NCBI GenBank assembly: GCA_021813555.1
Contig: JAKAKG010000222.1
Location: forward strand, 1-60,472
Origin: Acidobacteriota bacterium
GTDB lineage: Bacteria; Acidobacteriota; UBA4820; DSQY01
Length of the DNA: 60,472 nt
Direction of reading: 5' to 3'
The notes beneath the pieces were generated by a model that saw only the letters and a program-made list of their open reading frames with translations, made no database searches and was not told the origin of the DNA. How positions within the stretch are numbered: position 1 is the stretch's first letter; every line of letters starts with the position of its first letter. Position numbers and translations under genes: made by a program. Shown one piece after another: positions 1 to 59,263 of the stretch.

Positions 1-103
1 CAAGGGTGAGGTCAAGTCCTCCTCCAAGCTCACCTCCGTCAAGATCAACCCCGGCTTCAGCGAGGACCTCTTCAAGAAACCGAGCGGGGAAGAGAAGAAG
101 TGA
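1..103 (+). CDS. 3' end of a truncated CDS, possibly a LolA-like/outer-membrane lipoprotein-sorting protein
   Basis: Frame 2 reads KGEVKSSSKLTSVKINPGFSEDLFKKPSGEEKK* with high-GC3 codons and TGA at 101-103. 'KINPGxSEDLF' resembles LolA-like C-termini. Confidence 0.45.
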   Translation, partial: KGEVKSSSKLTSVKINPGFSEDLFKKPSGEEKK

Positions 104-139
104 AAGGTGAAAAGTGAAAAGTGAAAAGTAAAAAGTAAA
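98..139 (+). repeat. Heptamer tandem repeat (AAGTGAA)x6, degenerate
   Basis: aagtgaa aggtgaa aagtgaa aagtgaa aagtaaa aagtaaa; the first unit contains the upstream TGA stop. Confidence 0.9.
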
Positions 140-424
140 AGAGAGGGCGCCGCGCCCTCCCTGCCGATCGCCGACGCCCCCGTCCGCTATCAAGGGCCGG
201 GGGCGTTGGTGTGTCTGTCCCCCTCCAGGCGACGATCCGCCTCGCGCGGCGACCTTGCTGCACTTCGCGTTCCGGCACATGGGCGTTCTGTCTTTACGCC
301 TCTTCCCCATCCTCAACTCGCCATTGCCCGTTCCCCCCGGATTTTGGCATCTGGGCCCGGTTGGGCTACAATTCCTGATTAGCCCGCGCCGCGAGGACGC
401 GGCGGGGCTCAGCGGAGCCGCCCT

Positions 425-1627
425 TTGGAGAAGCGCAAGCGCACCCTTCTGACCGTGTTTCTTATCGTTTTTATCGACCTCATGGGATTCGGGATCGTCA
501 TCCCGCTCCTTCCCCTTTATGGTGACCGGTACAACCCTTCCCCGGCGGTCTTCGGCCTCCTCATGGCGGCCTACTCGCTTATGCAGTTCATCTTCGCCCC
601 GATTTTGGGGCGCTTCTCGGACGCCGTGGGGCGCAGGCCCATCCTCATCCTGTCCCTGGCGGGGACCGTCATTGGCTATTTTCTCTTCGCCATGCAGGAT
701 TCTCTGTGGCTCCTGTTTCTGGCGAGGGCCGTGAACGGCATTGCCGGAGCCAACGTGGCCACGGCGCAGGCGGTCATCGCCGACGTGACGAAGCCCGAAG
801 AGCGGGCCAAGGGCATGGGACTCATCGGCGCGGCCTTCGGGCTGGGCTTCATCTTGGGGCCGGCCATCGGCGGCGCCGCCAACGAGTATTTCGGCGCCCG
901 GGCCCCGGGTTTCTTCGCCGCGGCCCTCTCCGCCGGCGCTCTCCTCATGACCGCCTTCGCCCTGCCCGAAACGTGGCCCGCCGAGCGGCGCGCCCAGGCC
1001 GCTCCCAACCGCGTCCGCCACGGCTGGTTCTCCGTCACCCGGCTCATGGAAGCGCTCCGCCATCCCCAGATCGGGCTCGTGCTCGTGATCTTCTTCCTCA
1101 CCACCTTCGCCTTCGCCAACTTCGAATCCACGTTTGCCCTGTTTCTGAATGAGACGATGCACCTCGACACCGCCCACGTCATGTACTTCTTCGTCTTCGT
1201 CGGCGTGCTGGCGGCGTTCATCCAAGGGGGGCTCATCGGCCGCCTCGTGAAGCGCTTCGGCGAGAGGAATCTCATCCTCACGGGGGCCGTCCTCCTGGTG
1301 CCCGGCTACCTGCTCATCCTCACCGCCACGTCCATAGGGCACCTCATGGCGTTCCTCGTCCTGCTGGCGCTCGGCGCGGGCTTCACGTCGCCGACGCTAT
1401 CGTCGCTCGTGTCGCGGCTGTCCACGGCCGAGGAGCAGGGCGGCATCCTTGGCATTTTTCAGTCCATGGCGTCCTTGGCGCGCATCACGGGGCCCTTCTG
1501 GGGAGTCTTCGCCTTCAAGGAGTTCGGGGTGTCCGTGCCCTACCTCACGGCGGGGTCGGTGTCCACCGTGGTGGTGGTCCTGGCGTGGCTGATGCTCGTC
1601 CGGGCCAGGCGACAGGAACAGCGGTAA
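425..1627 (+). CDS. MFS transporter, TetA/DHA1-like
   Basis: ~12 hydrophobic segments, N-terminal 'IDLMGFGIVIPLLP', motif A 'GRFSDAVGRRP', motif C 'GFILGPAIGG'; TTG start. Confidence 0.9.
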   Translation: MEKRKRTLLTVFLIVFIDLMGFGIVIPLLPLYGDRYNPSPAVFGLLMAAYSLMQFIFAPILGRFSDAVGRRPILILSLAGTVIGYFLFAMQDSLWLLFLARAVNGIAGANVATAQAVIADVTKPEERAKGMGLIGAAFGLGFILGPAIGGAANEYFGARAPGFFAAALSAGALLMTAFALPETWPAERRAQAAPNRVRHGWFSVTRLMEALRHPQIGLVLVIFFLTTFAFANFESTFALFLNETMHLDTAHVMYFFVFVGVLAAFIQGGLIGRLVKRFGERNLILTGAVLLVPGYLLILTATSIGHLMAFLVLLALGAGFTSPTLSSLVSRLSTAEEQGGILGIFQSMASLARITGPFWGVFAFKEFGVSVPYLTAGSVSTVVVVLAWLMLVRARRQEQR

Positions 1628-1632
1628 AGCGG

Positions 1633-1784
1633 AAGACGGGAGACGCCAGACGCGAGACGCGAGACGCAAGACGCGAGACGCAAGACGCTAGACGCGAGAC
1701 CGGAGACGTTGAGGGGACCGGAGGCCATCCCAGCGGCCCCCGGTCCCTTCCTGTTCTGCCTATTGCCTACTGCCTACTGCCTAT
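1633..1784. repeat. Bipartite intergenic repeat: (GAGACGC)x~11, central hairpin, (CTGCCTA)x4
   Basis: Heptamers at 1633-1709, inverted repeat GGGGACCGG..CCGGTCCCT at ~1712-1748, heptamers at 1756-1783 that include the TAG of the convergent gene. Confidence 0.9.
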
Positions 1785-2290: not shown

Positions 2291-2312
2291 GGTTTTCCCC
2301 TTTTCCTGCGAG

Positions 2313-3041: not shown

Positions 3042-3099
3042 GAACGCTCCAGAACCAGCTGTAAGTATAAACGAAGGGCCGAACGAGGGGAAGGGGAAA

Positions 3100-3332
3100 G
3101 GAGGATTCGGAAAGCGGAATTCGGAAAGCGGAAAGCGGAAAGGAGGGGGAGGAAGGCGGAAGGGGCGAATTCGGATTTGGGATTTTGGAAGGGGGCCCTT
3201 GTAGGCGAGGGTTGGGTTAATTCCTCACCGCTCACCGCTCACTGCTCACGTCCCTTGGGAAAAAGATCGCGCTCTGGAGAGCGCTCCTACAGCGGGCGAA
3301 TGGTGCCCCCTCCCCGCGTCTCGCGTCTCGCG
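3100..3332. repeat. Bipartite intergenic heptamer repeats: (GGAAAGC/GGAATTC)n and (GGATTTG)n, then (GCTCACC)n and (CGCGTCT)n
   Basis: Read directly: purine-rich tracts at ~3100-3190, pyrimidine-rich tracts at ~3222-3250 and ~3315-3332. Confidence 0.8.
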
Positions 3333-6354: not shown

Positions 6355-6500
6355 CGCGGAGATGGGAGATGGGGGAACACGGAATTCGGAAGGGAAAGAG
6401 GTTGGGATTTGGGATTTGGGATTGCGGAAAAGAGACCACCCTGGGCGGGGGTTGTCTTACTCCTCACCGCTCACCGCTTACGGCTCACTCCTCACTTCGC
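6355..6500. repeat. Bipartite intergenic heptamer repeats (GGAGATG, GGGATTT ... CTCACCG)
   Basis: gggatttgggatttgggatt at ~6404-6423; ctcctcaccgctcaccgcttacggctcactcctcac at ~6460-6495. Confidence 0.8.
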
Positions 6501-13247: not shown

Positions 13248-13519
13248 CAGGCTGCTGAGAAACTCCCGTGGGTCGCGTTGCCAGCGCCACGGGCCCGGAT
13301 GCAAGGCGCCGCGACGCCGTCGATGCCTTGCACATCGTCTAGGAGCGGCAACACGGCAGGCGGGCCCGTGCCGCGGCAACCCTTCGGGCGCAAGGGATTG
13401 GGGGCCATCTGCGTTGTTGCGGCTCCTAGGAAGGGGGCCCACCCTGCCGTCGTCGCCGCGCCTAGCCTATGGCCCCCAAGCCTCTTGCGCGCGGCCCATG
13501 CGAGTTTTTCAGCAGCCTG
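13248..13519. mobile_element. 272-bp MITE-like non-autonomous element with terminal inverted repeats and flanking CTAG
   Basis: Left end CAGGCTGCTGAGAAACTC, right end GAGTTTTTCAGCAGCCTG (17/18 complementary). CTAG at 13244-13247 and 13520-13523. No transposase ORF. Confidence 0.8.
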
Positions 13520-13527
13520 CTAGACGT

Positions 13528-19838: not shown

Positions 19839-19920
19839 GGATTTGGGATTTGGGATTTGGGAAAAGAGGCGGCCGAGGGGGAGGATTTCCCTACCACCTC
19901 ACGGCGCACTGCTTGCTCCG
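19839..19920. repeat. Intergenic (GGATTTG)x3 with a degenerate CTCAC-type right arm
   Basis: ggatttgggatttgggatttgggaaaaga..ctaccacctcacggcgcactgct; same layout as the ~3170 and ~6400 copies. Confidence 0.7.
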
Positions 19921-20045
19921 ATTGAGGGGACAGGGGACAAGCTCAAAGGGAGGTGAATGGGGCTTGTTCCCTCGCCTCCCCGCTCCGGCGCCCCGCGTGC
20001 TGATCCATTGCGGCACCAAGGCTGGCGCGATTCATGGCCTGCGCT

Positions 20046-28578: not shown

Positions 28579-28582
28579 GGAC

Positions 28583-28675
28583 GGGGAGCAGGGAGCTGGT
28601 AGCAGGGAGCAGGAGGCAAGAATTGGCGAGCGCTATTCCCTACGGCTCCCGGCTCCCGTTCTCCCCGCTTCCGCC
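28583..28675. repeat. Bipartite (GGGAGCA)n ... (GCTCCCG)n element
   Basis: Complementary heptamer arms separated by ~25 nt. Confidence 0.8.
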
Positions 28676-28689
28676 TGTGTGAGGATTCC

Positions 28690-29919: not shown

Positions 29920-29921
29920 AA

Positions 29922-30012
29922 CCGGGAGCGGGGAGCGGGGAGCAGGGAGCGGAGAAATAGATGCGCAAGGAATTCCTTTCGGCTACCTGCTCCCGTTCTA
30001 CCGGCTCCCGCC
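29922..30012. repeat. Bipartite (GGGAGCG)n ... GCTACCTGCTCCC element
   Basis: Heptamer arms; homologous to 33905-33992 and to the reverse complement of 59176-59263. Confidence 0.8.
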
Positions 30013-30022
30013 GGAGGCCCCC

Positions 30023-31273: not shown

Positions 31274-31429
31274 GGCGGTGATTGGCGATGAGCTGAAAGC
31301 TGATCACTTTTGGCTGTTGGCTGTGGGTTGAGGGACGGTAGACAAAAAGGACCACGAACCGTCTGTAGTATAAAATGGTCACCGGCGCCCCCTCCGCCTG
31401 AATCAAGGCGGCCAGGGGCTTAGAGGCTT

Positions 31430-32551: not shown

Positions 32552-32656
32552 CGAAGCGCGAGACGCAAGGGGCGAAACGCGAGACGCGAGATGGCTTCGC
32601 CGGTTTGATGGTGTCCCGCTCAATCGCTTGATCGCTCAAACGCTTAATAGCCCATA
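32552..32656. repeat. Bipartite repeat: (GCGAGAC)n then octamer (CGCTYAAT)x~5
   Basis: gcgaagc gcgagac gcaaggg gcgaaac gcgagac gcgagat; cgctcaat cgcttgat cgctcaaa cgcttaat. Confidence 0.75.
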
Positions 32657-32666
32657 CGAGGACTTC

Positions 32667-33902: not shown

Positions 33903-33904
33903 AG

Positions 33905-33992
33905 TTGGCAGCTGGGAGCGGGGAGCAGGGAGTGGAGAACAAGATGCAGATTGGATCATTTCCGGCTACCTGCTCCCATTCTCCCTGGTCCC
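33905..33992. repeat. Bipartite GGGAGC/GCTCCC element
   Basis: gggagcggggagcagggagtggagaacaagatgc..ttccggctacctgctcccattctcc. Confidence 0.78.
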
Positions 33993-34005
33993 GAAAGGTC
34001 TGTCC

Positions 34006-35259: not shown

Positions 35260-35261
35260 GT

Positions 35262-35432
35262 GGGACGGGAGCAGGGAGAAGGGGAGCGGGGAGAAGGGGA
35301 CAGAGAACAAGGAACAGAGAACAGGGGGCAGGATGATTGCTGGTTGCGGATTGCACTGGGCAGGAGCGGCGGGAACGATTCCTTGCATCTCGCGTCTTGC
35401 CCCTCTCCCTGCTTCCCGCTCCCCGCTCCCGA
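35262..35432. repeat. Bipartite heptamer repeats (GGGAGMR)n, (AGAGAAC)n ... (CGCTCCC)n
   Basis: Purine arm at 35262-35330, pyrimidine arm at ~35387-35430. Confidence 0.78.
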
Positions 35433-35508
35433 AACCCCAGAGGGCGCTTTTGCGTAAGTCCTCCTAGCTGACGGTGGAGTGCCGGCGGCTTTTCCTCACG
35501 GAGCGCCC

Positions 35509-36246: not shown

Positions 36247-36335
36247 GCGCGGGACGCGATGAAGCGACACGCGAGACGCAAGACGCGATTAAGCGAGACG
36301 CGACTAGGCGAGACGCGATTAAGCGAGACGCGAAC
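36247..36335. repeat. Tandem repeat of a ~15-nt unit GCGAGACGCGATTAA (heptamer plus octamer)
   Basis: gcgagacgcaagacgcgattaa gcgagacgcgactag gcgagacgcgattaa gcgagacgcga. Confidence 0.8.
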
Positions 36336-36431: not shown

Positions 36432-37205
36432 ATGAGAATCTATCTGTCACGGTGGCTGTGCTTGGATGTGGCATCGAACCTCGCGAGGCTCCGAGAGGAG
36501 GCGCGGGAGGCGGCGCAGGCCGGGGCGCGCTGGGTGGTTTTCCCGGAGAGCTTCCTCCACGGATACACGCGGCGTGCAGACCCGGCCCAGGTGCGGCGCA
36601 CCTTGGGGGAAGTTTCTTCGGAGCATCCGGCCACCGTTTTCTTTTTCGGCTCATTCTCCGAGGACAGGCGGAACCGGATGACCGTCTGGCTGGGCGGCCG
36701 CGAGCTCGCCCGGTACGACAAGGTGCACCTGTTCGGCCCCAACAACGAGCCGCAGCTTTGGGATCCGGGCGACCGATATTCGGCAGTCGATCTGACAGGC
36801 TGCCCGGTGGGGCTTCTCAACTGCAACGACCTGCGCTTTCCGGAGCAGGCCCGGGCCTTGAAGCTCAAGGCCGGCGTGCAGGCGTACGTGGCGGTTGCCT
36901 GGTGGCCCTGGCGTCGGACCCACGTTTGGGAAACCCTCCTGCGCGCGAGGGCCATCGAGAACGGCGCCTGGGTGTTCGGCTGCTGTGTTGCGGGATCGCG
37001 CTTTCCTGGAGAAGACTTCGCGGGAGCGGGGAACTACGCGTTCGATCCCGCCGGGGAGCCGGTCCGCACGCGGGATGACCGGACCTATGAGTGCGACCTT
37101 TCTTCGCCCCCCGCCCTCGTCGTCGACACGGCGATATCCTCGGTGGATATCGCAACAGTGGAAGTCTTCCAGATCGGAGAAGGGACTAGGGGACTGGGGG
37201 ATTAG
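36432..37205 (+). CDS. Carbon-nitrogen hydrolase (nitrilase/amidase family)
   Basis: Catalytic triad contexts VFPE, YDKVHLF, NCNDLRFPE; 'LLRARAIEN'. Confidence 0.88.
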   Translation: MRIYLSRWLCLDVASNLARLREEAREAAQAGARWVVFPESFLHGYTRRADPAQVRRTLGEVSSEHPATVFFFGSFSEDRRNRMTVWLGGRELARYDKVHLFGPNNEPQLWDPGDRYSAVDLTGCPVGLLNCNDLRFPEQARALKLKAGVQAYVAVAWWPWRRTHVWETLLRARAIENGAWVFGCCVAGSRFPGEDFAGAGNYAFDPAGEPVRTRDDRTYECDLSSPPALVVDTAISSVDIATVEVFQIGEGTRGLGD

Positions 37206-37358
37206 GAGACTAGGGGACTAGGGGACTAGGGGATTAGGGGACTAGGGGACTAGGAAGGGAAACGGCGGGAACTCCCCCGCTGTCTGCTTTTTCCTTAATC
37301 TCCTCACTTCTCACTCCTCACTTCTCACTCCTCACTCTTCACTTCTCACTCCTCATAT
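37182..37358. repeat. Bipartite repeat: octamer (GGGACTAG)x~9, terminator-like hairpin, heptamer (CTCACTY)x~8
   Basis: Octamers at 37182-37254 supply the last codons and stop of the upstream gene; hairpin ACGGCGGG..CCCGCTGT-CTGCTTTTT; heptamers at 37299-37356. Confidence 0.9.
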
Positions 37359-37476
37359 TCCACCGTCTTTCCAATTCCATTTTCCTGGCATGGTGCCTCC
37401 TGGGGTGCATTCTACCGCGGCGGCTTTGTGCTTCGGCAAGGGCCTCTGCTATCCTTCGCGTCTAGGGAGGTGTGCA

Positions 37477-39015
37477 ATGAAGTGGATCAGGCCTCTTCTG
37501 ATTGCATCAGCGCTCGGCTTGCTGGCGCTGGGGGCCTTCGGTGCCGCATCGGCCCCGCCCAAGAGCTACAGCTTCACCATCCTTCATTTCAACGACTTCC
37601 ACGGCCAGGTGGAGCCGGTGTGCGAGGAACCAGGAAAACCCTGCGGCGGTCTGGCGCGCCTGGCGGGCCAAGTGTCGGCCGCCGAGGCGGACGCCGCGGC
37701 GCGCGGGGAGAAGGCCTTCCTGTTCTTTGCGGGGGATCTCTTCACGGGGACCGCCTTCTCGACCCTCTTCCAGGGCGGACCCGAGTTCGACGCCCTCTCC
37801 CGCATGGGCGTCACGGCCATGACCACGGGCAACCACGAGTGGGACTTCGGGCCCGGTGTGCTCGTGGCGAGGGTGCGGAAGGCCTCCTTCCCCGTGGTTC
37901 TGGACAACGTCAAAGCCGCGGACCCCGCTCATGTCTTTTGGGTTCCCTCCCTGGACCTGAAGGCGGGTGATCTGCGCATCGGAGTCCTCGGGGTCACCAC
38001 GCCCGACACGCCCGTCACCACGGCCCCCGGCAATACCCAGGGCTTCTCCTTCTCGGACCCGGTGGCCGCGGTGGGAGCCGAGCTGGCCGTCCATCAAAAG
38101 GATTGGGATTTCGTCATCGTGGTGAGCCACTGCGGATTTGAGGTGGACAAAGCCCTGGCGGACCGGTACCCATCTTTGGGGCTCATCGTGGGGGGCCACG
38201 ACCACAAGGTTCTCGAAGCGCCCTTCGTGGAAAACGGTGTTCCCATCGTGCAGGCGGGTGACCGGGGACGGTTCCTCGGGGAAGTCCGCGTGACGATGGA
38301 GAAGGGGAAGAAGCCCGTCGTCACGGGCCGCCTCCTGCCCATCACTCCCGAGATGCCTGAGAGCCCGGGGGTCAAGAGCCTGCTCGCGCCCTACCTTGCC
38401 AAAGAAGAGAGCGCCCTGGGAGCGGTCATCGGCAAACTGCCCGCCGCTCTTTCTGGGGACAGAGAGATATTGCGGACGCAGGAGGCCCCCATCGGCGACC
38501 TGCTGGCCGACGCCATGCGCTCCGAAGCTAAGGCCGACGTGGCGTTCGTCAACGGCGGGACGATCCGCGCGGGGCTCCCCGCCGGCGATGTGACGGGCCG
38601 CGACCTCTACGCCTGTCTGCCCTTTTTCGATTCCCTCTGCACCGTCCGCCTTACGGGAGCGCAGGTGCAGAGCCTCCTGGACCGCTGCGCGTCCATGCCT
38701 CTCCAGGATGCCCCCGGCGGATTCCTCCAGGTGAGCGGCCTCTCGGTGCGCTATGAAGGGGGAAAGGCGCGCGGTGTTGCCGTGGGCGGTGTTCCCCTGG
38801 ACCCGGCTCGGAGCTATCTCGTAGCGTGCACCCATTTCCTCCTCTCCGGAGGGGACGGGTTGGACGAGTTCAAGGCCGGGACGGACGTGCGGGATTGGGG
38901 CATCAGCCTCCAGGAACTTCTGCGGAGGAAGCTGGAAAGCCCCCGCCTGGCCCTTCCCGAGGCGGGTGAGCGCATCCGCCGAATTGATGCGCCGCCAGCG
39001 CGGAAGGCCGCGTGA
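37477..39015 (+). CDS. Periplasmic 5'-nucleotidase/UDP-sugar hydrolase (UshA family)
   Basis: Signal peptide, 'HFNDFHG', 'AGD', 'GNHEWDFG', 'VSH', 'GGHDH', C-terminal 'NGGTIRA' and 'LQVSGL'. Confidence 0.9.
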   Translation: MKWIRPLLIASALGLLALGAFGAASAPPKSYSFTILHFNDFHGQVEPVCEEPGKPCGGLARLAGQVSAAEADAAARGEKAFLFFAGDLFTGTAFSTLFQGGPEFDALSRMGVTAMTTGNHEWDFGPGVLVARVRKASFPVVLDNVKAADPAHVFWVPSLDLKAGDLRIGVLGVTTPDTPVTTAPGNTQGFSFSDPVAAVGAELAVHQKDWDFVIVVSHCGFEVDKALADRYPSLGLIVGGHDHKVLEAPFVENGVPIVQAGDRGRFLGEVRVTMEKGKKPVVTGRLLPITPEMPESPGVKSLLAPYLAKEESALGAVIGKLPAALSGDREILRTQEAPIGDLLADAMRSEAKADVAFVNGGTIRAGLPAGDVTGRDLYACLPFFDSLCTVRLTGAQVQSLLDRCASMPLQDAPGGFLQVSGLSVRYEGGKARGVAVGGVPLDPARSYLVACTHFLLSGGDGLDEFKAGTDVRDWGISLQELLRRKLESPRLALPEAGERIRRIDAPPARKAA

Positions 39016-43618: not shown

Positions 43619-43648
43619 CAGGGAGCAGGGAGCAGGGAGCAGGGAGGG
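43619..43648. repeat. (CAGGGAG)x4 heptamer repeat
   Basis: cagggag cagggag cagggag cagggag. Confidence 0.85.
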
Positions 43649-46931: not shown

Positions 46932-46958
46932 TTTAACATCCCACATACCACATCCCCC
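46932..46958. repeat. (CCACATC)-type heptamer repeat
   Basis: taacatc ccacata ccacatc ccc, between the permease stop and the tolC start. Confidence 0.55.
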
Positions 46959-48092
46959 TTATCCAGCGGTTTTCTTGAACCGTCCCGAGGCCAGGGACAG
47001 GAGGACCACGCCCAGGACCGCCAGGGCGGCCATCTGGGGCCAAAGAACTTCCACGCCGACGCCCTTGAGGAAGACCCCCCGGACGATGATCAGAAAATAT
47101 CGCAGGGGATTGACATAGGTGAGCCACCGCACCACGAGGGGCATATTGGCGATGGGGTAGATGAACCCCGAGAGGAGGATGGCGGGCTGCATGAAGAAGA
47201 AGGCCGTCATCATGGCCTGCTGCTGGGTTTTACTGATGGTGGAGATGAGAAGGCCCACCCCGAGGGTGCTCAGGAGGAAGAGCCCCGTGGAGGCGAAGAG
47301 GACGAGGGGGTTCCCCTGGAAGGGCACGCGAAACCAGAACACGGCGATAAGGCTGATGAGGATCACGTCGAAGAAGCCGATGAGGGCGAAGGGGATGGTT
47401 TTGCCCAGGATGAACTCCGCCCTGCCGATGGGGGTCACCATGATCTGCTCCATGGTGCCGATCTCCCGCTCGCGGACGATGGCCATGCTAGAGAGGATGA
47501 CGGAAACCACCATGAGGAGGAGGGCGACGACCCCGGGAACAAAGTAGTCACGGCTGTCCAGGTTGGGGTTGTACCACGCGCGGGAGGCCAAGGTCACGGG
47601 CTGGACGGCCAGGGCAGCGCCGCCGCTTCGGTTCAGCCGCCTGATGAGCAGATCCTGGCCGTAGGCCGAGGCGATTCGGGAGGTGTATCCCAGAACGATG
47701 CTCGCGGTATTGGAATCGGTGCCGTCCAGGATGAGCTGGAGCTGGCCCGTGCGGCCCCCCTCCACGTCGTCTTGGAATCCCCGGTTGATTCGGAAGACGG
47801 CCTTCGCGGAGCCCTTGTCCAGAACGTCCGCCACTTGCGCTTCACTGCCCAGCCGCTGGACGACGTGGAAATACCCCGATCCGTCAAAGGCGTCCATGAG
47901 GCGGCGGCTCTGGGGAGTGTTGTCCAGGTCGAAGAGGGCTACTCGGATGCCGCGCACGTCGGTGGTGACAGCGTACCCGAAGATGATCACCTGAAAAATA
48001 GGCACCACGATGAGCACGGCCCTCATCCGCGGGTCCCTGAGGACCTGGATGAACTCCTTTCGGAGCATGGTGCGCAGGCGCTCGGCTATCAA
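46959..48092 (-). CDS. ABC-2 permease (YbhR-like)
   Basis: TTG start after GAGGTG; 'KEFIQVLRD', 'WYNPNL', 'REREIGTMEQ', 'NPLRYF'. Confidence 0.9.
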   Translation of the reverse strand: MIAERLRTMLRKEFIQVLRDPRMRAVLIVVPIFQVIIFGYAVTTDVRGIRVALFDLDNTPQSRRLMDAFDGSGYFHVVQRLGSEAQVADVLDKGSAKAVFRINRGFQDDVEGGRTGQLQLILDGTDSNTASIVLGYTSRIASAYGQDLLIRRLNRSGGAALAVQPVTLASRAWYNPNLDSRDYFVPGVVALLLMVVSVILSSMAIVREREIGTMEQIMVTPIGRAEFILGKTIPFALIGFFDVILISLIAVFWFRVPFQGNPLVLFASTGLFLLSTLGVGLLISTISKTQQQAMMTAFFFMQPAILLSGFIYPIANMPLVVRWLTYVNPLRYFLIIVRGVFLKGVGVEVLWPQMAALAVLGVVLLSLASGRFKKTAG

Positions 48093-48182
48093 GGATTCAC
48101 CTCTGCGAGACGTGATGAGGGGATGAGGGAACCTTTGCGTTCTGGCGACCCCAGTCCGATAGGTGTGCATTCATCGCTCTCG

Positions 48183-49316
48183 TCACGCCAGCCTCTTTTT
48201 GAAGGTCTTCAGCGCGAGACCCACCATCACGGCGCTGAAGGCGAGAAGGAAGAGGCCCTCTCCGTAAAGGTCCGAGGGCCCCACGCCTTTTAGATACAGC
48301 CCCCTGAGGAGGGCGACGAAATATCGGGCGGGGACGAGGTACGTGACCGCCTGGAGGACCTTGGGCATGTTGCTGATGTCGAACATGAACCCCGACAGAA
48401 GGAAGGCCGGAAGGAAGGTGGCCATGAAGGCTACCTGGCTCGCCAGGAGCTGGTTTTTGGCCACGATGCTGATGAGCATGCCCATGGAGAGGGCGCCCAC
48501 CAGGTAGATCATGGACATGGCCGCCAGCGCCAGGAGGCTTCCGCGCAGGGGCACGTGGAAGAGGAATCGCCCCGCAAGGACCGAGAGGACCATGTCGAGC
48601 GCTCCCACGGCCACGTAGGGCGCAAGCTTGCCCACCACGAGCTCGGAGGCGCGGATGGGGGTGGAGAGGAGCTGTTCCATGGTGCCCGTCTCCCACTCCC
48701 TCGCCACGGTGAGGGACGTGAGTAGGGCGGCGATGAGCATCATGATGACTGCGATGAGCCCGGGGACGATGAAGTCCATAGATTCCATGTCCGTGTTGTA
48801 CCAGACGCGGGGGCGCACCTCCAGCGGAAGGGCCGGGGGCTTCACCCCATGGCGCAAGGCCCGCTTCATCATGGCGCCCTGAGAGAAGTTTTGAACGATG
48901 GATTCGGCGTAGTTCATAGCGATGGTGGCCGTGTTCGCGTCACTGCCGTCCGCGATGACCTGGACTTCCACGGGCCTCCCCGCCGCCACCTGCCGGCCGA
49001 AGTCCAGCGGTATGACCAGGGCCACCAGGGCCTTGCCCCGGTCCAGGGCCTCCGCGATGGCGCCGTAGGTGTCCACTTCGGAGAGGAGGGAGAAATACGG
49101 CGATCCCGTGAAACGGGCCGCCAGCTCTCGGCTCTGGGGCGTCTGGCTCTGGTCCCAAACGAGGAGAGGCACGTGGTCCACGTCCAGGGTGAGGGCGTAG
49201 CCGAAGAGGAGGAGGAGCACCAGGGGCAGAGCGATGCTGACCCCCAGGGCTCTGGGATCCCGCAGGATATGGAGCGACTCCTTCCTCGCCACGGCCCATG
49301 TCCGGCGGAGATTCAT
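48183..49316 (-). CDS. ABC-2 permease (YbhS-like)
   Basis: 'KESLHILRD', 'AREWETGTMEQLL', 'PAFLLSGF', 'PARYF'. Confidence 0.9.
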   Translation of the reverse strand: MNLRRTWAVARKESLHILRDPRALGVSIALPLVLLLLFGYALTLDVDHVPLLVWDQSQTPQSRELAARFTGSPYFSLLSEVDTYGAIAEALDRGKALVALVIPLDFGRQVAAGRPVEVQVIADGSDANTATIAMNYAESIVQNFSQGAMMKRALRHGVKPPALPLEVRPRVWYNTDMESMDFIVPGLIAVIMMLIAALLTSLTVAREWETGTMEQLLSTPIRASELVVGKLAPYVAVGALDMVLSVLAGRFLFHVPLRGSLLALAAMSMIYLVGALSMGMLISIVAKNQLLASQVAFMATFLPAFLLSGFMFDISNMPKVLQAVTYLVPARYFVALLRGLYLKGVGPSDLYGEGLFLLAFSAVMVGLALKTFKKRLA

Positions 49317-51253: not shown

Positions 51254-51261
51254 GCGTCCTG

Positions 51262-52233: not shown

Positions 52234-52967
52234 GCCCGGTCCTCCTTCTTTCGGATCTGTCGCGCGGCGGGCTCGTGGGCGCTCCGCGCGGTTTTGCTTG
52301 AGCCGTGCCGCGTTCTCGGTTCAGCAGAGGCCTCGGGCCTTATGAGAAGGCCTCGGAGGACCAGGTCCGCCACGGCGCGGCCCGGGGCCTCCGGCCAGGC
52401 CGGCAGGGAGGTTCCTGCCGTCTTGGCGATGCGCCCGCTCATGGGCTTGGCCACGATGTGGAGCATGGTTCCCACCACCAGAAGAATGTGTAGGGTGGCG
52501 GGGTGAACCTTCCGGAAACAGCCCTTGGCGGAAGTGCTGCAGATGATGGACTGTTCCAGGGCGATGATCCGCCCCAGGGCTTTGATCATGGGTTCGGTCA
52601 AGTCCTTCCCGCCCGTGGCCAGTTCGCGCAGGATGATGCGCGGCATGTAGGGCCGGACCCGTGCCACGGACTCGAAGGCCTCCGCAATGGCCGCAATCTG
52701 GCCCTCGGGAGTAGCGGCTTTGGCGACGCCCTCCTGAACGGCCGACCACATGGATGCCAAGGCCTCCGAAATGACCATGTCGTAAAGAGCCGCCTTGCCG
52801 CCCACGTGGTAGTAGAGCATGGCTTTGTTCACGCCGGCCCTTCGCGCGATGGCGTCGACCCTGGCGCCGGAGAACCCCCTCGCGCCGAACTCCGCGGCAG
52901 CGGCGCGGAGGATGGCACTCCGCGGGTTTTTGGGGGAAAGCGCGTGGGCGGGGTCGGCCATGATCAT
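52230..52967 (-). CDS. TetR/AcrR-family regulator
   Basis: HTH 'ILRAAAAEF..GFSGARVDAIARRAGVNKAMLYYH..GK'. Confidence 0.93.
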   Translation of the reverse strand: MIMADPAHALSPKNPRSAILRAAAAEFGARGFSGARVDAIARRAGVNKAMLYYHVGGKAALYDMVISEALASMWSAVQEGVAKAATPEGQIAAIAEAFESVARVRPYMPRIILRELATGGKDLTEPMIKALGRIIALEQSIICSTSAKGCFRKVHPATLHILLVVGTMLHIVAKPMSGRIAKTAGTSLPAWPEAPGRAVADLVLRGLLIRPEASAEPRTRHGSSKTARSAHEPAARQIRKKEDRA

Positions 52968-52992
52968 CTCCGTGGGTCAACCATAAGGTTTA

Positions 52993-53035
52993 ACCAACTA
53001 GTTGGTAATATGGGCCGCCTCAAGGCGGCTGTCAA
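52993..53035 (-). promoter_or_regulatory. sigma70 promoter with adjacent palindromic TetR-type operator
   Basis: Minus strand TTGACA (53035-53030)-17 nt-CATATT (53012-53007), followed directly by the perfect palindrome ACCAACTAGTTGGT (52993-53006). Confidence 0.75.
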
Positions 53036-53048
53036 GGGGTCCGGGCAG

Positions 53049-53255
53049 GGGGATTCGAATTCGGAATTCGGAAAGCGGAAAGCGGAATTCGGAAAGCGGA
53101 ATTCGGAAAGGGAGGAGATGGACCACCGAGGACACCAAGAACACCAAGGGAGAGATGGGGACGTGGAATATGCGAGGGGAAAGGCGGCGTCGCAGCTTGC
53201 GTGGCTGTTCTCCTGATCTTTCGATCACCCGATTACCCGCTCACGTCTCGCGCCT
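53049..53255. repeat. Composite intergenic repeat: (GGAATTC/GGAAAGC)x~8, nonamer (ACACCAAGR), octamer (CGATYACC), CGTCTCG
   Basis: Read directly; the heptamer tract closely matches that at ~3100-3140. Confidence 0.8.
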
Positions 53256-53322
53256 GCGCTCTTGACCTGCGCGGCGAGGTGAGCTAGGGTTTCCTCAACG
53301 GGCAGTGCCCGGGGAGGACGTC

Positions 53323-53397
53323 ATGGCTCAGGCTATCCGCAATTCTTTCGCAGACCCTGCGGCCTATTATTACTACGCCCTCTCCCTGCCGCCTTAG
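53323..53397 (+). CDS. Tyrosine-rich leader peptide MAQAIRNSFADPAAYYYYALSLPP (24 aa)
   Basis: RBS GGGGAGGA, ATG 53323, four consecutive Tyr codons TAT TAT TAC TAC (53365-53376), TAG 53395-53397; directly upstream of tyrA. Confidence 0.85.
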   Translation: MAQAIRNSFADPAAYYYYALSLPP

Positions 53398-53455
53398 GCG
53401 CGCCCGACGCGTTGACACGAATGGGGCCCGCCGAGGTGGCGGGCCCTTTGCCTTC
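53390..53455 (+). terminator. Attenuator: terminator hairpin with a mutually exclusive antiterminator
   Basis: Stem GGGCCCGCC (53424-53432)/GGCGGGCCC (53438-53446) plus TTTG. GGCGCGCCC (53397-53405) can pair 8/9 with the 5' arm; CGCC-TTA-GGCG spans the stop codon. Confidence 0.78.
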
Positions 53456-53493
53456 CACCGTGGCGGAATCCATGAAATCTGAGGAGACCCGTC

Positions 53494-54627
53494 ATGGAAA
53501 CCAAATCGGAACGGCCACGTACCCCCCAAAGGAGGCCGGCGGCCTCCGCCCTCGATCGCCACCGCTCCGCCATCGAAGCGCTCGACGGCCGCATTCTCAA
53601 GCTCGTGGCGCGCCGCCTGCGGGTGGCCAAATCCGTCGGCGAACTGAAGGGCTCATGCGGCATCCCCCTCCGAAAATTTGAGGTGGAGGCGCAGGTATGC
53701 GAACGCCTTTCAAGCCTCGCCGAACGTCTGGGGCAAGATCGAACGCTGGGGGGAGATCTGGCCCTTTTCCTCATCGGGCGGTCCCTCGAAACGCAGGCAC
53801 CCATCCTGGAGTCGGCCTACGCCGGGGACCGGCTCAAGGCGCTGGTGGTGGGCGGCATGGGCGGCATGGGGCGCTGGATCGCCGGCTTCCTCTCCAGCCA
53901 GGGCCACGCCGTCAGGGTGCTCGACCCGGCTCAGGGAGAGTGCCGGTGGGGCCGGGCGGAGAACTTGGAATGGGGCGCTTCCTGGGCCGATCTGGTGGTG
54001 GTGTCCGTTCCCATGAGCCGCTGCGCCGGCGTCCTCGAGTCCGTCGGCGCCGCCCATCCCAAGGGCGTGGTAGCGGAACTGTGCAGCCTCAAGGGGCATC
54101 TTCTGCCCACCCTTGAGCGCCTACGATCGGGAGGCACGCGGGTGGTGTCCTTCCACCCCATGTTCGGTCCCGACGTACGGATGCTCAGCGGCCGAACCAT
54201 CGTCGTGTGCTCGGAGGGCCATGAGGCGGACCGTTCTCTGGTGAAGGGCCTTTTCGCCTCCACAAGCGCTCACTTGGTTGAGATGGACGTCCCGGAGCAC
54301 GATCGCAGAATGGGGGCCGTTCTGGGACTGTCTCACCTCGTCAACCTGGCCTTCGCCAGGGCCCTGTCCCTTTCAGGCAGGCCCTTTTCGGATCTCGGGG
54401 CCGCCTCGGGCGTGACCTTCCAGAAGCAGGTCTCCACGGCGCTGGACGTGGTGGGGGAGAACCCCGGCCTCTATTACGAGATCCAGGCCCTCAACGCCGT
54501 GACGCCGGAGACGTTTTCATGGATGGAGCGCGCGCTGTCCGACTATCGCGAGGCGGTGGCGCGGGGAGAGGAAGAGACTTTTGTCGCCCTCATGAAGGAG
54601 AGCGCCGCCTACTTCCAAGGCGGATAA
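53494..54627 (+). CDS. tyrA: Bifunctional chorismate mutase/prephenate dehydrogenase
   Basis: AroQ domain 'R..I..LD..IL.L...R...A..VG..K', Rossmann 'VVGGMGGMG', 'SLK', 'HPMFGP', 'HDRRM..V.GLSH'. Confidence 0.9.
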   Translation: METKSERPRTPQRRPAASALDRHRSAIEALDGRILKLVARRLRVAKSVGELKGSCGIPLRKFEVEAQVCERLSSLAERLGQDRTLGGDLALFLIGRSLETQAPILESAYAGDRLKALVVGGMGGMGRWIAGFLSSQGHAVRVLDPAQGECRWGRAENLEWGASWADLVVVSVPMSRCAGVLESVGAAHPKGVVAELCSLKGHLLPTLERLRSGGTRVVSFHPMFGPDVRMLSGRTIVVCSEGHEADRSLVKGLFASTSAHLVEMDVPEHDRRMGAVLGLSHLVNLAFARALSLSGRPFSDLGAASGVTFQKQVSTALDVVGENPGLYYEIQALNAVTPETFSWMERALSDYREAVARGEEETFVALMKESAAYFQGG

Positions 54628-56472: not shown

Positions 56473-56516
56473 GTCTCCTCCCACCGACGAGCCTCGCTGA
56501 GAGTATAATGCCAGAT

Positions 56517-56614
56517 GGAGGTGCTAGGGCGCTGGTGCGTTCCGCGGCCTTCAAAGCCGTTGCACCGGGGTTAACCCCCCGGCGGGTGGGTTCGATTCCC
56601 ATGCACCTCCGCCA
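56517..56614 (+). tRNA. selC: tRNA-Sec (anticodon UCA)
   Basis: 8-bp acceptor GGAGGTGC/GCACCTCC plus G-CCA, 6-bp D stem with a 4-nt loop, CTTCAAA anticodon loop, long variable arm, 5-bp T stem; TATAAT at 56504-56509. Confidence 0.95.
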
Positions 56615-57010
56615 AACCCCCAAGAGGGAGGCTCCGCCCCCCTCTTGGCGCTTCGCTCTGCTTCGCCTCGCTACGCTGAACTCCTCGGGGATAGGTAGCG
56701 CCTAGAGTTCGGGCAAAGCCCGAAACTCGGCGCGCTTTTCTAGAAAGCCTCCTGCAACGGCCTCGCTTGACAGGGGAATCGAAGGGCGGGAAACGCCGCA
56801 GCCCCGCCGCGAGAACGCGAGCGAAGAGCGAGCGTTCGCAGCCTTGCGGGGCAAGGCGAGGGCCCCGCCCCGGGAACGCTAGTGGAGCTTGGGACGGAGC
56901 GAGCGGACTCTGACGCGAGCGAGGCCCCTAGCGACACTTGAGTTCGATTCCCATGCACCTCCGCCAGACCCCCAAGAGGGAGGCTCCGCCCCCCTCTTGG
57001 CGCTTCGCTC
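56590..57010 (+). repeat. 69-bp direct repeat of the selC 3' end (56590-56658 and 56942-57010) enclosing a 283-bp structured segment
   Basis: The copies differ at one base (A/G after CCA) and include the T-loop, acceptor 3' strand and downstream hairpin CCAAGAGG..CCTCTTGG. Confidence 0.9.
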
Positions 57011-57012
57011 GG

Positions 57013-58161: not shown

Positions 58162-58248
58162 GGGCCGTCAACCTCCCGGAAGGGCGATTATACAACGCGT
58201 CAGTGGAGTCCGTTCAGGTCCCCCTGCTCCCCGCTCCCCGCTACCACC

Positions 58249-58875
58249 TCAGAACCGCGGCTTCCTCTTTTCAAGGAAAGCGGCGACGCCCTCGGCGGGA
58301 TCGCCGGTCTCGAAGGCGAGGGCGAACGAGGCGCGCTCGAGGGCCTGGGCCGGCCCGACGGGCAGGCCCGCCTGGTGGTGGAGGAGGGGCCTGAGAAGTC
58401 CCAGGGCCTTTAGTGAGAGGCCGTCGAACCGGCTCCGGGCCGCGTCCAGAGCGGCATCGAATCCTTCGGGAACAACCTCGGCCCATCCCGCCCTCCTGGC
58501 CTCGTGGGCGGAGAGCCTCCCGCCGGCGAACCAGACGCGGGAGGCCCCTCCGTGGCCCAGGCGCAAGGCGAGGAGGACCGCTTCTCCTCTCCCCATGGGA
58601 TCGAAGCGAAGGGACGACCTCGGGGCCATCAGCAGGGCGTCGCAGGCGAGGAAGAGGGTGGGGGCGTCCCCTGTCACCGCTCCAGACAGGACCCCCGTGA
58701 CGGGCATGGGGTGGGCGAGCAGCTTCTTCAGATGGGCGGAGATGCCCGGAATGGGTGCCGAGCCGCCCCGGCTGGCGAGGACGATGGGCAACTCCTTTTC
58801 CAACGCCAGGCCGAGGGTTTCCCCGGCATCCGCGGTGCCGAGGCGGACCACCTCCGAGAGAAATCGCCCCTTCAC
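58249..58875 (-). CDS. Degenerate enoyl-CoA hydratase/isomerase-fold protein
   Basis: 'LACD', 'SAHEARRAGW..VV', C-terminal 'DPAEGVAAFLEKRKPRF'. GTGA overlap with the upstream gene; an alternative ATG is at 58887. Confidence 0.7.
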   Translation of the reverse strand: MKGRFLSEVVRLGTADAGETLGLALEKELPIVLASRGGSAPIPGISAHLKKLLAHPMPVTGVLSGAVTGDAPTLFLACDALLMAPRSSLRFDPMGRGEAVLLALRLGHGGASRVWFAGGRLSAHEARRAGWAEVVPEGFDAALDAARSRFDGLSLKALGLLRPLLHHQAGLPVGPAQALERASFALAFETGDPAEGVAAFLEKRKPRF

Positions 58876-59171
58876 CCTTCGCTCCATCCGACCAGGGCGC
58901 GTCGCACTTCGGGGCCGGCCTCGACGATCTCGTCGCCTTCCCTCACCGCCGTCTGGCAGGCGAGGGCTTCGAGCTGGACCCCGTCCCGCATGAGAGTGAG
59001 GGCGCAATGGTGGCAGTCTCCGTTCCAGCAGAAGTCCCCGTAGGGGATCTCCATGGGCTCCAGGAACTGGAAGCAGCGCAGGAGGAGGTTCTTCTGGGGG
59101 ACGCGGACCTCGCGGCCCAGGTACCGGACGGTGACGAGGCGCTCGTAGGGTTCGTATATGTCGTCGGTCAT
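58872..59171 (-). CDS. Small 2Fe-2S ferredoxin-like protein (NuoG/Fer2_4-type Cys spacing)
   Basis: FCWNGDCHHC...LACQT (Cx4Cx2Cx15C). Confidence 0.78.
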   Translation of the reverse strand: MTDDIYEPYERLVTVRYLGREVRVPQKNLLLRCFQFLEPMEIPYGDFCWNGDCHHCALTLMRDGVQLEALACQTAVREGDEIVEAGPEVRRALVGWSEG

Positions 59172-59175
59172 GGAC

Positions 59176-59263
59176 GCGGGAGCTGGGAGCAGGTAGCAGG
59201 AAGCAGGAAGAAATAGGGTGGCATGTTTCTCTCCGCTCCCCGCTCCCGGCTCCCCGCTTCCGC
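59176..59263. repeat. Bipartite GGGAGC/GCTCCC element
   Basis: gggagctgggagcaggtagcaggaagcaggaag ... ctccgctccccgctcccggctccccgcttcc. Confidence 0.82.

Follow-up and report, generated by a model that had tools for sequence, protein, structure and literature searches.

The STRR heptamers of heterocystous cyanobacteria form a genome-wide, lineage-specific excess of 7-nt tandem repeats in non-coding DNA, and the long simple-sequence repeats of Mrazek (2007) are reportedly also in lineage-specific excess there. The arrays described here resemble both in being a genome-wide, lineage-specific 7-nt excess in non-coding DNA, and we know of no report on arm polarity or cargo for either kind. MITEs and REPINs are abundant, short, gene-less intergenic elements with inverted repeats, presence/absence polymorphism and a rarer gene-carrying form.

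Intergenic tandem heptamers are described in Xanthomonas (GGGAATC) and Nostoc PCC 7120 (GGGGA(C/T)T), and the part of Rehm et al. (2015; PMC4692102) used here places their G-rich strand at most 50 bp downstream of a stop codon (sense) or at most 50 bp upstream of an ORF (antisense). In the same part, 70-75 pairs lie on opposite strands in convergent orientation, divergent genes seldom have repeats between them, and both the length and the sequence of the repeats differ widely among close species. By this orientation rule, the polarity seen here has already been published for Xanthomonas and Nostoc. However, that text describes one unit per genome, reads the repeats as G-quadruplexes and notes neither a cause nor a cargo gene (PMC4692102), whereas here there are about 16 recurring units, a polarity that is as strong without G runs, arms that are often not complementary, and a link to cassettes with PF05635 genes. 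The TAACTGA arrays of Beggiatoaceae are likewise intergenic heptamers oriented relative to genes; the part of MacGregor (2015; PMC4679880) used here describes a strong constraint on their orientation with respect to the adjacent start codon and states that stop codons in one orientation restrict their location. They differ in having one AT-rich unit, mostly in single arrays directly upstream of starts, and that part describes one inverted case and no two-arm design (PMC4679880). Finally, the rRNA intervening sequences (IVSs) of Coxiella and Leptospira carry an S23p/PF05635-type ORF between inverted repeats, whose long stem is cut by RNase III, and according to the part of the source used here an old proposal holds them to be selfish or mobile (PMC4990558). 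PF05635 is similar to Avd, as stated in the section used of PMC10053308.

We lean toward the reading that small insert cassettes resembling these IVSs have the arrays as their two inverted arms, which would connect bacterial repeats of a type that has long been puzzling with what may be a mobile element. On either strand, such a cassette would run from purine-rich tandem 7/8-mers through an interior to pyrimidine-rich tandem 7/8-mers. The interior would be a PF05635 gene of about 120 aa in a few copies and mostly a short unique spacer, or else one arm would have decayed. Cassettes would occupy junctions from the stop codon to just ahead of the next ribosome-binding site, so that their arms adjoin the gene ends; since they read alike from both strands, purine would lie on the left and pyrimidine on the right for any direction of the flanking genes. 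The arms would then alter fast through slippage and whole-cassette replacement. Of these elements, the data show architecture, cargo link, placement and turnover. Moreover, the arms may pair in the transcript, so that the insert is tolerated or excised, as RNase III does with rRNA IVSs, and the purine-in design may persist because the outgoing strand is rich in stop-like words and the strand entering a gene is free of SD-like words and start codons. Like MITEs and REPINs, the cassettes are abundant, short, gene-less, intergenic and polymorphic for presence and absence, with a rarer gene-carrying form; unlike them, they have no conserved core, no clear target duplication and arm arrays that vary in unit and length, and no transposase or RAYT for them was identified in this genome. 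The likeness to rRNA IVSs lies in the small PF05635-type ORF bracketed by inverted arms. In contrast, the IVSs of the source section used here are located in helices 25/45 of 23S rRNA, from which RNase III excises them (PMC4990558), whereas the cassettes lie at protein-gene junctions, have tandem 7/8-mer arms and mostly miss the ORF.

Arrays in the window and the genome

Arrays were called with TRF, and genes at all loci with a simple in-house caller. At period 7 or 8 and at least 2.8 copies, the window (the whole analysed stretch of 60,472 nt) holds 25 arrays across 16 gaps and a further one where the contig begins (Table 1). The original prediction had counted about 18 gaps; TRF found the units where they had been placed, and the gap number was revised to 16 plus the contig start at these thresholds. 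All 11 gaps listed as two-armed are purine-rich on the left and pyrimidine-rich on the right. Nine of them were recovered by threshold calling; for the other two, the sequence shows right arms, at 29980 and 33965, that fall short of the TRF threshold. The order holds regardless of gene orientation, as had been claimed, with a convergent gap (1627-1781), a divergent gap (52967-53494) and both tandem orientations among them. With arrays classed as purine (R) or pyrimidine (Y) by purine cut-offs of 0.6 and 0.4, the purine strand is directed away from the nearer gene in 21 of 22 classifiable intergenic window arrays.

Table 1. Repeat arrays and arms of the window and the state of the same positions in relatives
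Position	Strand	Feature	Context or method	Further observation
98..141	.	AAGTGAA array, purine-rich	contig start; TRF	
1634..1783	.	GAGACGC arm 1634-1708; terminator-like hairpin ~1712-1749; CTGCCTA arm 1756-1783	convergent-gap cassette	copy numbers differ in G003 and G001; other units in G005
3095..3332		GGAAAGC/GGAATTC arm 3095-3163; CTCACCG arm 3224-3249; CGCGTCT array 3315-3332	tandem gap, minus-strand genes	
6358..6496		GGAGATG and GGGATTT arrays 6358-6423, then CTCACCG/CTCACTC arm 6459-6496	long divergent gap	
19839..19921	.	GGATTTG arm (19839-19862) and ~60 nt	arm by TRF	entire 80 nt missing from orthologous G003 gap; flanks CGGATT / CCGATT
28579..28675	.	gene-less cassette: GGGAGCA arm 28584-28613; CGGCTCC arm 28643-28675	MacA|MacB junction	GAGACGC/CGCCTAAT cassette instead in G003 and G001
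29920..30012	.	gene-less cassette: GGGAGCG arm 29924-29952; CTGCTCCC/CGGCTCCC arm ~29980-30012	MacB|MacB junction	identical in G003
32552..32648	.	GAGACGC arm 32557-32591; CGCTCAAT arm 32617-32648		
33903..33995	.	GGGAGCR arm 33910-33932; CTGCTCCC/TTCTCCC arm ~33964-33995		
35262..35430	.	GGGAGCA/GGGAGAAG/ACAGAGA arm 35267-35324; CCCCGCT arm 35400-35430		
36248..36333	.	composite GCGAGAC+GCGATTAA array	adjoins stop codon	one contig of run X9 lacks one 15-nt unit
37182..37355	.	GGGACTAG arm 37182-37254; small hairpin; CTCCTCA/CTTCTCA arm 37300-37355		GGGACTAG arm supplies TAG stop of the upstream gene
43619..43646	.	CAGGGAG arm		GCGTCTC arm on the opposite side instead in G001
46936..46956	.	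ACATCCC array	adjoins stop of right-hand minus-strand gene	
48092..48183	.	GATGAGGG x2	90-nt gap	gap only ~10 nt in G001, G002, G005
53053..53244		GGAATTC/GGAAAGC arm 53053-53110; CACCAAGAA 53124-53148; CGATCACC arm 53222-53244	divergent gap	
58222..58242	.	CCCCGCT arm	right edge of gap	GGGAGCG arm on left edge instead in G003 and G001
59188..59262	.	complementary arms AGCAGGA/GGGAGCT 59188-59210 and CTCCCCG 59229-59262		one long hairpin when folded as RNA (z = -5.1)

The 3.3-Mb genome of this uncultured Acidobacteriota bacterium carries 797 merged arrays of period 7/8, of which 712 are intergenic, and TRF rows number 716 for period 7 and 376 for period 8 (5, 17 rows; 10, 135; 11, 112). Single-arm gaps (about 220) are commoner than two-arm gaps. 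Array density is 24 per 100 kb in this genome and goes down to 0-2 in other families.

Polarity at gene edges

A genome-wide scan by period, which had been proposed as a check, revealed strong and non-random polarity. Among 267 neighbour pairs less than 300 bp apart, 144 are RY, 12 YR, 19 RR and 19 YY, and the remainder involve a mixed array. For opposite-class neighbours in the same gap the ratio is RY 113 : YR 6, all six YR pairs lying in gaps of more than 400 nt with RYRY. RY also dominates in relatives (G001, 12:0; G003, 7:0; G002, 3:0), which are not independent of one another. In agreement with the prediction, 471 of 546 arrays, not all independent events, direct the purine strand inward, away from the nearest gene edge (299/347 at 3' ends and 172/199 at 5' ends); with gap orientations from crude gene calls, the counts are 90/101 in convergent, 343/393 in tandem and 38/52 in divergent gaps. 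As controls, purine content is flat across array-free gaps (0.497 left, 0.504 right; n=898), exact duplications are inward in 58% of cases at period 5 and 55% at period 6 versus 84.5% at period 7, and single unit copies divide 358:271.

An explanation without any cassette, which we consider unlikely, is that slippage creates 7/8-nt microsatellites in either orientation, that selection filters them near coding ends and that PF05635 genes merely settle there. The purine-rich strand alone would be tolerated just past a stop codon, owing to its stop-like words and lack of an open frame, and the pyrimidine-rich strand alone ahead of a ribosome-binding site, since it brings no SD-like words or start codons. 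Such filtering agrees with the fall of the inward share with gene distance, from 95% at up to 5 nt (99% of 141 at 3' ends) and 97% at 5-20 nt to 87% at 20-50, 72% at 50-100 and 51% at 100-200 nt, and with the unequal reach of polarity, about 20 nt at 3' ends in tandem gaps versus about 100 nt at 5' ends. Additionally, near neighbour arrays are RY in 102 cases and same-class in none, whereas neighbours separated from the far gene by 60 nt or more are RY in 24 and same-class in 17, so that a gene-boundary effect fits as well as a cassette. The stop codon lies inside 86 of 347 3'-end arrays and 70 begin 1-5 nt past it; about half of the units contain TGA, TAG or TAA in purine orientation, and among the listed units almost none has stop words in the opposite one. 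Isolated 2-copy arrays are less polar (38/51) than longer ones, which also suits filtering. However, it requires two filters with a mirror-image outcome for every unit, even for units without SD, start or stop words, such as GAGACGC (34/36 inward) and GGGATTT (27/30). It also leaves the restricted common vocabulary unexplained: of 96 isolated minimal duplications, 64 already resemble the vocabulary, and the remaining 32 show no polarity (9/21).

The arrays might instead be inherently directional elements that serve host regulation or structure, such as G-quadruplexes, bidirectional terminators, Rho loading pads or Chi-like exonuclease guards before genes, which we regard as improbable. They are commonest in convergent gaps (80/196) and rarest in divergent gaps (39/269; tandem, 293/966), G exceeds C on the inward strand in 83% of 621 arrays, and the CGGATTT unit tracks G>C instead of purine content, all of which would suit such elements. 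Rho is present in this genome; the Nostoc group, to our knowledge, is without it. The Xanthomonas unit forms G4 in vitro, and Nostoc shows equal polarity, which argues against a host element, both in the part of Rehm et al. used here (PMC4692102). Furthermore, units without even GG are still 83% polar (124/149), strong hairpins occur in 5% of RY spacers versus 31% of array-free convergent gaps, and hairpins are rarer in array-bearing than in array-free gaps. Terminators and G-quadruplexes are not supported as the identity of the arrays. In addition, so many different units cannot all be a single protein's site, and unit replacement at the same junction in close relatives argues against a sequence-specific role.

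Arms, spacers and proposed break healing

The arms are often not complementary, as originally noted: complementarity reaches 85% or more in only 19% of cognate arm pairs, versus 10% of random pairings. The units of R arms mirror those of Y arms and have similar counts, and the two arms co-occur in tandem gaps with an odds ratio of 11.2 (7.0 among gaps of 50 nt or longer), which filtered slippage does not explain. The spacer halves extend the skew, with purine at 0.60 on the left and 0.40 on the right and left exceeding right in 84% of 127. Mirrored units, co-occurrence and spacer skew favour the cassette reading, as do the lower array density in other families and the RY excess in relatives. 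A search of 131 spacers for a conserved core found none; the spacers are unique, and the 66 non-self matches come mostly from one octamer family. Target duplications are ambiguous, with one 12-nt direct duplication (C89:3651) and otherwise only 4-7-nt similarities.

The original prediction had offered templated, RT-like extension from both ends of a break as a source of the repeats. Both 3' ends would be extended with purine-rich repeats by an RT, by an enzyme resembling telomerase or by a repair polymerase that stutters, and then joined, a geometry matched by head-to-head telomere fusions and TdT N-regions. The frequent non-complementarity of the arms, their co-occurrence, the skewed spacer halves and the limitation of polarity to periods 7 and 8 and to vocabulary units are all consistent with this route, which we nevertheless judge very improbable. 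A co-occurring reverse transcriptase had been suggested as something to look for, but RVT_1 was found in only 8 of 31 genomes and not in array-rich G001 (98% complete), G002 and G005, and Ku was found in 0 of 19 genomes of the family searched. Polarity close to random at 100-200 nt from genes, and the weak RY excess among far neighbours, also argue against it. Moreover, arrays show no unit-decay gradient, about 16 unit types would require many templates, and a conserved terminator hairpin stands between the arms of gap 1627-1781, which indicates that these arms did not originate at a single break.

PF05635 genes and turnover of the proposed cassettes

In other genera, the MacA|MacB junction spans 12-84 nt (12-28 nt in six genomes) and is free of 7/8-nt arrays in 11 of 12 genomes, the exception being G019 with an AAATTTC array, and the MacB|MacB junction spans 13-25 nt in seven other genomes. 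Blocks of 90-280 nt are inserted here in junctions that measure 10-25 nt in other genera, which filtered slippage leaves unexplained. Orthologous gaps display presence/absence polymorphism, the outcome set against gradual expansion in the prediction, and gradual copy-number change is seen as well. Arrays change rapidly between genomes 90-95% identical; one-unit copy-number steps separate relatives and samples, in keeping with slippage, and in-situ growth from existing sequence is evident for TAGGCAA, which includes the stop codon (C55:5817), and GTGAAAA (C216:16946).

PF05635 (23S_rRNA_IVP, four-helix-bundle, Avd-like) has six copies in this genome and is present in 22 of 31 genomes searched. 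The nearest arrays are R on the left and Y on the right at 11 of 17 PF05635 genes (6 from this genome and 11 from relatives). The other six comprise two with right Y only, one RR that has a Y arm beyond it on the right, one YR and two with mixed arrays; the YR locus (C120:889) is complex, with an uncalled purine array just upstream. In contrast, ordinary genes with arrays on both edges are Y-gene-R in 34 cases, RR in 6 and RY in 0, and selection at coding ends does not explain the reversed order around PF05635 genes. The arms flanking the cargo share units with gene-less cassettes and are complementary (GGGGACTA/TAGTCCCC, GGGAGCG/GCTCCCA, AGTGAGG/CCTCACT and GCGAGAC/TCTCGCG). The four-helix-bundle gene had been named among the genes to look for between the arms; GxxExxY, named with it, has 0 copies in this genome. 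Against the cassette reading, there are only six cargo genes versus about 800 arrays, with none in the window, and G009 combines three PF05635 copies with an array density of only 1 per 100 kb. Mobilising activity is not an obvious role for a helical bundle of 120 aa, and no transposase, nuclease or RT tied to the arms was found in this genome. The mostly non-complementary arms of gene-less pairs, the unique spacers, the ambiguous target duplications, the larger number of single-arm gaps, the loss of polarity at 100-200 nt from genes and the in-situ growth of some arrays also count against it. The cause might also be reversed, with a small gene inserting into hairpins already there.

At two junctions, C41 and C58, close relatives carry different whole cassettes at identical boundaries, which slippage again fails to explain. 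At C41, the order is upstream TGA, 1 nt, R arm, PF05635 gene, Y arm, and SD and ATG of the next gene. This gene-bearing cassette is found in this genome (G000), G002 and G004; G001 probably has it too, divided between two contig ends. In G003, whose flanks are 95-97% identical, a 94-nt gene-less GAGACGC/CGCTTAAT cassette has the same boundaries. Collectively, the R...Y flanks of PF05635 genes, opposite to those of ordinary genes, and the junctions with gene-bearing and gene-less forms indicate that polarity is part of the cassette design, and they support the proposal that the repeats are remnants of a small mobile cassette that has lost its cargo. At C58, the gene-bearing cassette is placed as at C41; the PF05635 gene is present in this genome and G005, and the junction holds an 85-nt gene-less GATGAGGA cassette in G003 and 159 nt in G002.

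Census and polarity of the heptamer arrays

STRR heptamer arrays have been known since 1990, with neither origin nor cause assigned. The window, one entire contig of a 3.30-Mb assembly (235 contigs, 65% G+C), has an ordinary gene content of transporters, molybdenum-cofactor synthesis, oxidoreductases, and a duplicated MacA-MacB-MacB module. Called with TRF at a period of 7 or 8 and at least 2.8 copies, it contains 25 arrays distributed over 16 gaps and a further one where the contig begins; the calls confirm the arrays of the original prediction at the same positions and with the same units. According to that prediction, gaps with two arms carry a purine-rich array (R, read on the forward strand) on the left and a pyrimidine-rich array (Y) on the right, whatever the orientation of the genes. 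This order (RY) holds in all 11 gaps that it named, and genome-wide it is found in 113 opposite-class pairs sharing one gap, against 6 in the reverse order (YR). Two right arms in the window are too degenerate for TRF, yet plain by eye in the sequence. Moreover, the purine strand runs away from the nearer gene, an orientation referred to here as inward, in 21 of the 22 classifiable window arrays.

Across the genome, TRF returned 716 rows at period 7 and 376 at period 8, compared with 17 at period 5. Merging yields 797 arrays with a bimodal purine content, 712 of them intergenic; the gene calls behind the intergenic and polarity counts come from our own simple gene caller. Neighboring arrays less than 300 bp apart are RY 144 times and YR 12 times. 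Relative to the nearest gene, 471 of 546 arrays are inward, both at 3' ends (299/347) and at 5' ends (172/199), and in convergent (90/101), tandem (343/393), and divergent (38/52) gaps. The polarity reaches 95–97% for arrays no more than 20 nt from a gene, falling to approximately 50% at 100–200 nt. As controls, period-5 and period-6 duplications show hardly any polarity, and single unit copies are weakly polar (358:271). A background intergenic purine gradient was rejected as the cause, as none exists in the array-free gaps of the genome. Collectively, the polarity and control results establish that the polarity of the arrays is real and far beyond chance.

G-quadruplexes, which call for four or more G3 runs, were likewise rejected as the cause of polarity: GGG occurs in the unit of only 207 of the 546 arrays, and the polarity is 83–85% without GGG. 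Rho is present nearly everywhere and so does not discriminate. As in the heptamer repeats of the type described by Rehm 2015, 7-nt units are in excess and intergenic here, and the polarity takes the same form, with the G-rich strand on the sense side past stops and on the antisense side before starts, and with convergent pairs. Gene-relative polarity and convergent pairs like those of this genome are also in print for Xanthomonas and Nostoc heptamers (PMC4692102), with no cause given. A preprint on Nostoc recF/recO (10.1101/2022.06.06.494920) reports heptamer repeats with modest promoter effects, but gives neither a mechanism nor a polarity. A literature search on GGGAATC returned primers only.

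Anatomy of arms, spacers, and junctions

We refer to a purine arm, an interior, and a pyrimidine arm together as a cassette, which is gene-less when the interior is a spacer only. Approximately 16 units account for most arrays in the genome. Right-arm units mirror the left-arm units as their reverse complements, and the counts are similar; cognate arms are complementary in 19% of pairs compared with 10% of random pairs, and are thus mostly non-complementary. The spacers are unique and without a conserved core, except in one octamer sub-family that shares them, and their left halves are purine-rich and their right halves pyrimidine-rich. Among the 347 arrays at 3' ends, the stop codon lies inside the array in 86, and the array begins 1–5 nt past it in 70, so that arrays supply or adjoin the stop codons of 156 genes. 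At 5' ends, the arrays end 5–50 nt ahead of the start and leave the ribosome-binding site intact. In tandem gaps, moreover, one arm tends to be accompanied by the other (odds ratio 11).

Several familiar origins do not fit this anatomy. The GC-rich hairpin between A-rich and T-rich flanks of an intrinsic (bidirectional) terminator is rare: a strong hairpin is found in 5% of 115 RY spacers versus 31% of array-free convergent gaps. Hairpins are also fewer in gaps that contain arrays than in those that do not, and the inner array flanks and RY spacers show no hairpin enrichment. A palindromic centre or fold-back origin was rejected because half-wise shuffling yields central spacer stems that are at least as good. 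Gene-flanking inverted repeats pairing the mRNA ends are as frequent as in random pairings (12% vs 13%), and unit decay is equal at both ends of the arrays, giving no sign of polar growth. A MITE or other non-autonomous transposon also fits poorly. Array flanks and spacers show no conservation of the multi-copy kind with terminal inverted repeats, and searches for PF05635 and GxxExxY cargo gave no transposase-bearing partner, the only cargo found being a four-helix bundle. Furthermore, no multi-copy core or donor was found for the inserted spacers, and in 8 inserts the sequence outside the repeats occurs nowhere else in the genome. The check for target-site duplications gave one 12-nt direct duplication; elsewhere, only 4–7-nt similarities occur, and these could be remnants of ribosome-binding motifs (SD).

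Gene-bearing cassettes and turnover among relatives

Another long-standing "selfish" element without an explanation is the rRNA intervening sequence (IVS) that carries a small ORF; the ORF family is related to Avd, the DGR accessory protein. This genome has six copies of the family (PF05635, 23S_rRNA_IVP, an Avd-like four-helix bundle; E down to 3.5e-39), none of them in the window, where every cassette is gene-less. Among 17 PF05635 genes from this genome and its relatives, 11 have R on the left and Y on the right as their nearest arrays, and 3 more do so in part, while ordinary genes show the reverse (Y-gene-R 34, RY 0). The arms at PF05635 genes use units common to gene-less cassettes and are mutually complementary. 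On two contigs, C41 and C58, the cassette spans from the stop codon of one gene to the ribosome-binding site of the next. At the same junctions, the congener G003 (flanks 95–97% identical) carries a gene-less cassette with other arms and unchanged boundaries, and further relatives have a PF05635 gene at one or the other. Genes of the GxxExxY type have no copy in this genome; in relatives they show a similar, weaker tendency toward R...Y flanks.

The closest published relatives of the cassettes are the rRNA IVSs and the Xanthomonas and Nostoc heptamers. In IVSs, an ORF of the PF05635 type is bracketed by inverted repeats, which RNase III cuts (PMC4990558), and complementary arms are found here at 11 of the 17 PF05635 genes. 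In contrast, the known IVS site is helix 25 or 45 of 23S rRNA, whereas all PF05635 copies examined here lie between protein genes. The link between heptamer arrays and PF05635 cassettes was not found in the literature searched, with subscription journals and closed supplements outside it; the polarity itself is already published for other phyla.

Array density per 100 kb is 24 in this genome, 15–21 in the congeners, 1–13 for other genera within the family, and 0–2 in other families, and RY predominates in every genome compared where pairs exist. MacAB operon junctions are approximately 100 nt long here versus 12–25 nt in most other genera. At one of them, this genome carries a GGGAGCA/CGGCTCC cassette, G003 and G001 carry GAGACGC/CGCCTAAT, and G005 carries GGTGATCA/AGATCACC; the flanking proteins are 97–98% identical. 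The comparison with G001 and G003 covered 333 orthologous gaps, 80 of which hold an array in one or more of the genomes. The differences extend from one-unit steps to indels of 160–270 nt; therefore, gradual change and presence/absence both occur. Contigs of four DNA runs differ by a single 15-nt unit deletion and break at arrays. At the MacB|MacB junction of four genomes from other genera (L013, L014, L018, and L022 in G011, G015, G007, and G013), another insert has inverted 8–9-mer arms of the ACACCAAG / GCACAGAG type. These arms are rich in A and C instead of G, and the rule there tracks purine content, not G>C.

The arrays might also have arisen by slippage followed by a filter on orientation, with no cassette involved. 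Six cargo genes are few for approximately 800 arrays, and we know of no enzyme that moves the cassettes. The arms of gene-less cassettes are mostly not complementary, single arms outnumber pairs, and far neighbors complete an RY pair 24 times versus 17. Some arrays have clearly grown from local sequence, including the stop codon. On these counterpoints, slippage with a filter keeps some weight, but we consider it unlikely beside the PF05635 genes found within R...Y arms and the gene-bearing and gene-less alleles of the same junctions.

A candidate cassette, its consequences, and other elements of the window

The same two observations speak for one of the origins offered by the original prediction, scars of a mobile cassette that lost its cargo. 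The other, RT-like extension from both ends of a break, did not hold up. RVT_1 is present in 8 of 31 genomes and was not found in the array-rich congeners G001, G002, and G005, and Ku does not co-occur with arrays; healing of breaks by RT therefore keeps little probability. A diversity-generating retroelement or other RT-dependent element was rejected for the same lack of co-occurrence, and none of the six PF05635 copies is near the RT genes of this genome, which lie on C216 and C180.

A cassette of purine arm, interior, and pyrimidine arm would read identically from either strand, which would explain a polarity indifferent to gene direction. Its arms would abut genes because cassettes fill short junctions, and the polarity would decay with distance because "nearest gene" loses its meaning far from genes. 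The arms may pair in RNA: folding energies of the window cassettes are −43 to −56 kcal/mol, clearly beyond shuffles in one only (z = −5.1). No RNA run was listed among the sequencing runs that contain this DNA. The purine-in design might persist by following the upstream gene with stop-like words and by keeping SD-like words and start codons off the downstream gene. More broadly, we raise as a tentative possibility that the STRR-type heptamer arrays of many phyla, rather than being simple microsatellites, are the ends of a widespread class of IVS-like mobile cassettes with PF05635/Avd-like or GxxExxY cargo. Purine-in arms would be needed for movement, through a hairpin RNA or ssDNA intermediate to which the cargo protein binds, and for residing without harm between a stop and the next start. 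This would account for the polarity in Xanthomonas and Nostoc and for the origin of rRNA IVSs.

If the arrays are cassette arms, the heptamer excess, the polarity, and the Avd-related IVS ORF family merge into one testable system. Through the arrays, operon junctions become tenfold longer. Arrays also differ between 95%-identical genomes, so they are useful as strain markers and are a source of annotation errors. Of the 470 contig ends in the assembly, 52 have an array within 200 nt, approximately 23 being expected. Short-read assemblies thus break at arrays, and the array counts are probably too low. Logan contigs from other samples likewise terminate inside arrays.

Other features of the window and of related contigs are collected in the table. 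The MacA-MacB-MacB module is single in other genera. The 273-bp insertion looks like an active MITE with no relation to the heptamer arrays, and the region behind tRNA-Sec looks like the remnant of an element integrated at that gene.

Features located in the window and in other contigs
Position	Feature	Observation
Window 1627–1781	Gap with arrays	Exception to the lower hairpin frequency of such gaps
Window 13248–13521	273-bp insertion	Terminal inverted repeats CAGGCTGCTGAGAAA...TTTTTCAGCAGCCTG; missing at the orthologous site in G003 and G001; many copies in G001–G005 at 85–100% identity
Window 27472–36246	MacA-MacB-MacB module twice in tandem, then a single ABC ATPase gene	Paralogues 35–60% identical; repeat cassettes in 6 of 7 junctions
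Window 36278	15-nt unit deletion	Difference among contigs of four DNA runs
Window 37356–37519	Minus-strand open frame, mostly deleted in this genome	G001 and G003 longer by 170–250 nt
Window 56517–56614	tRNA-Sec	
Window 56517–57010	tRNA-Sec, then ~380 nt	Tail duplicates the 3' end of the tRNA
Window 56620–56950	Short multi-copy repeats	Many matches in 5 of 5 congeners
G003 C406:758–1378	RVT_1 gene	~500 nt from DNA orthologous to window 56646
C89:3651	12-nt direct duplication	
G000:C102:3429–3743	Sixth PF05635 copy	Flanked by ~52-nt tandem units, purine-rich upstream, not 7/8-mers; unit complement downstream as GACATTG/TTGGCCA arrays; inverted design kept with longer units
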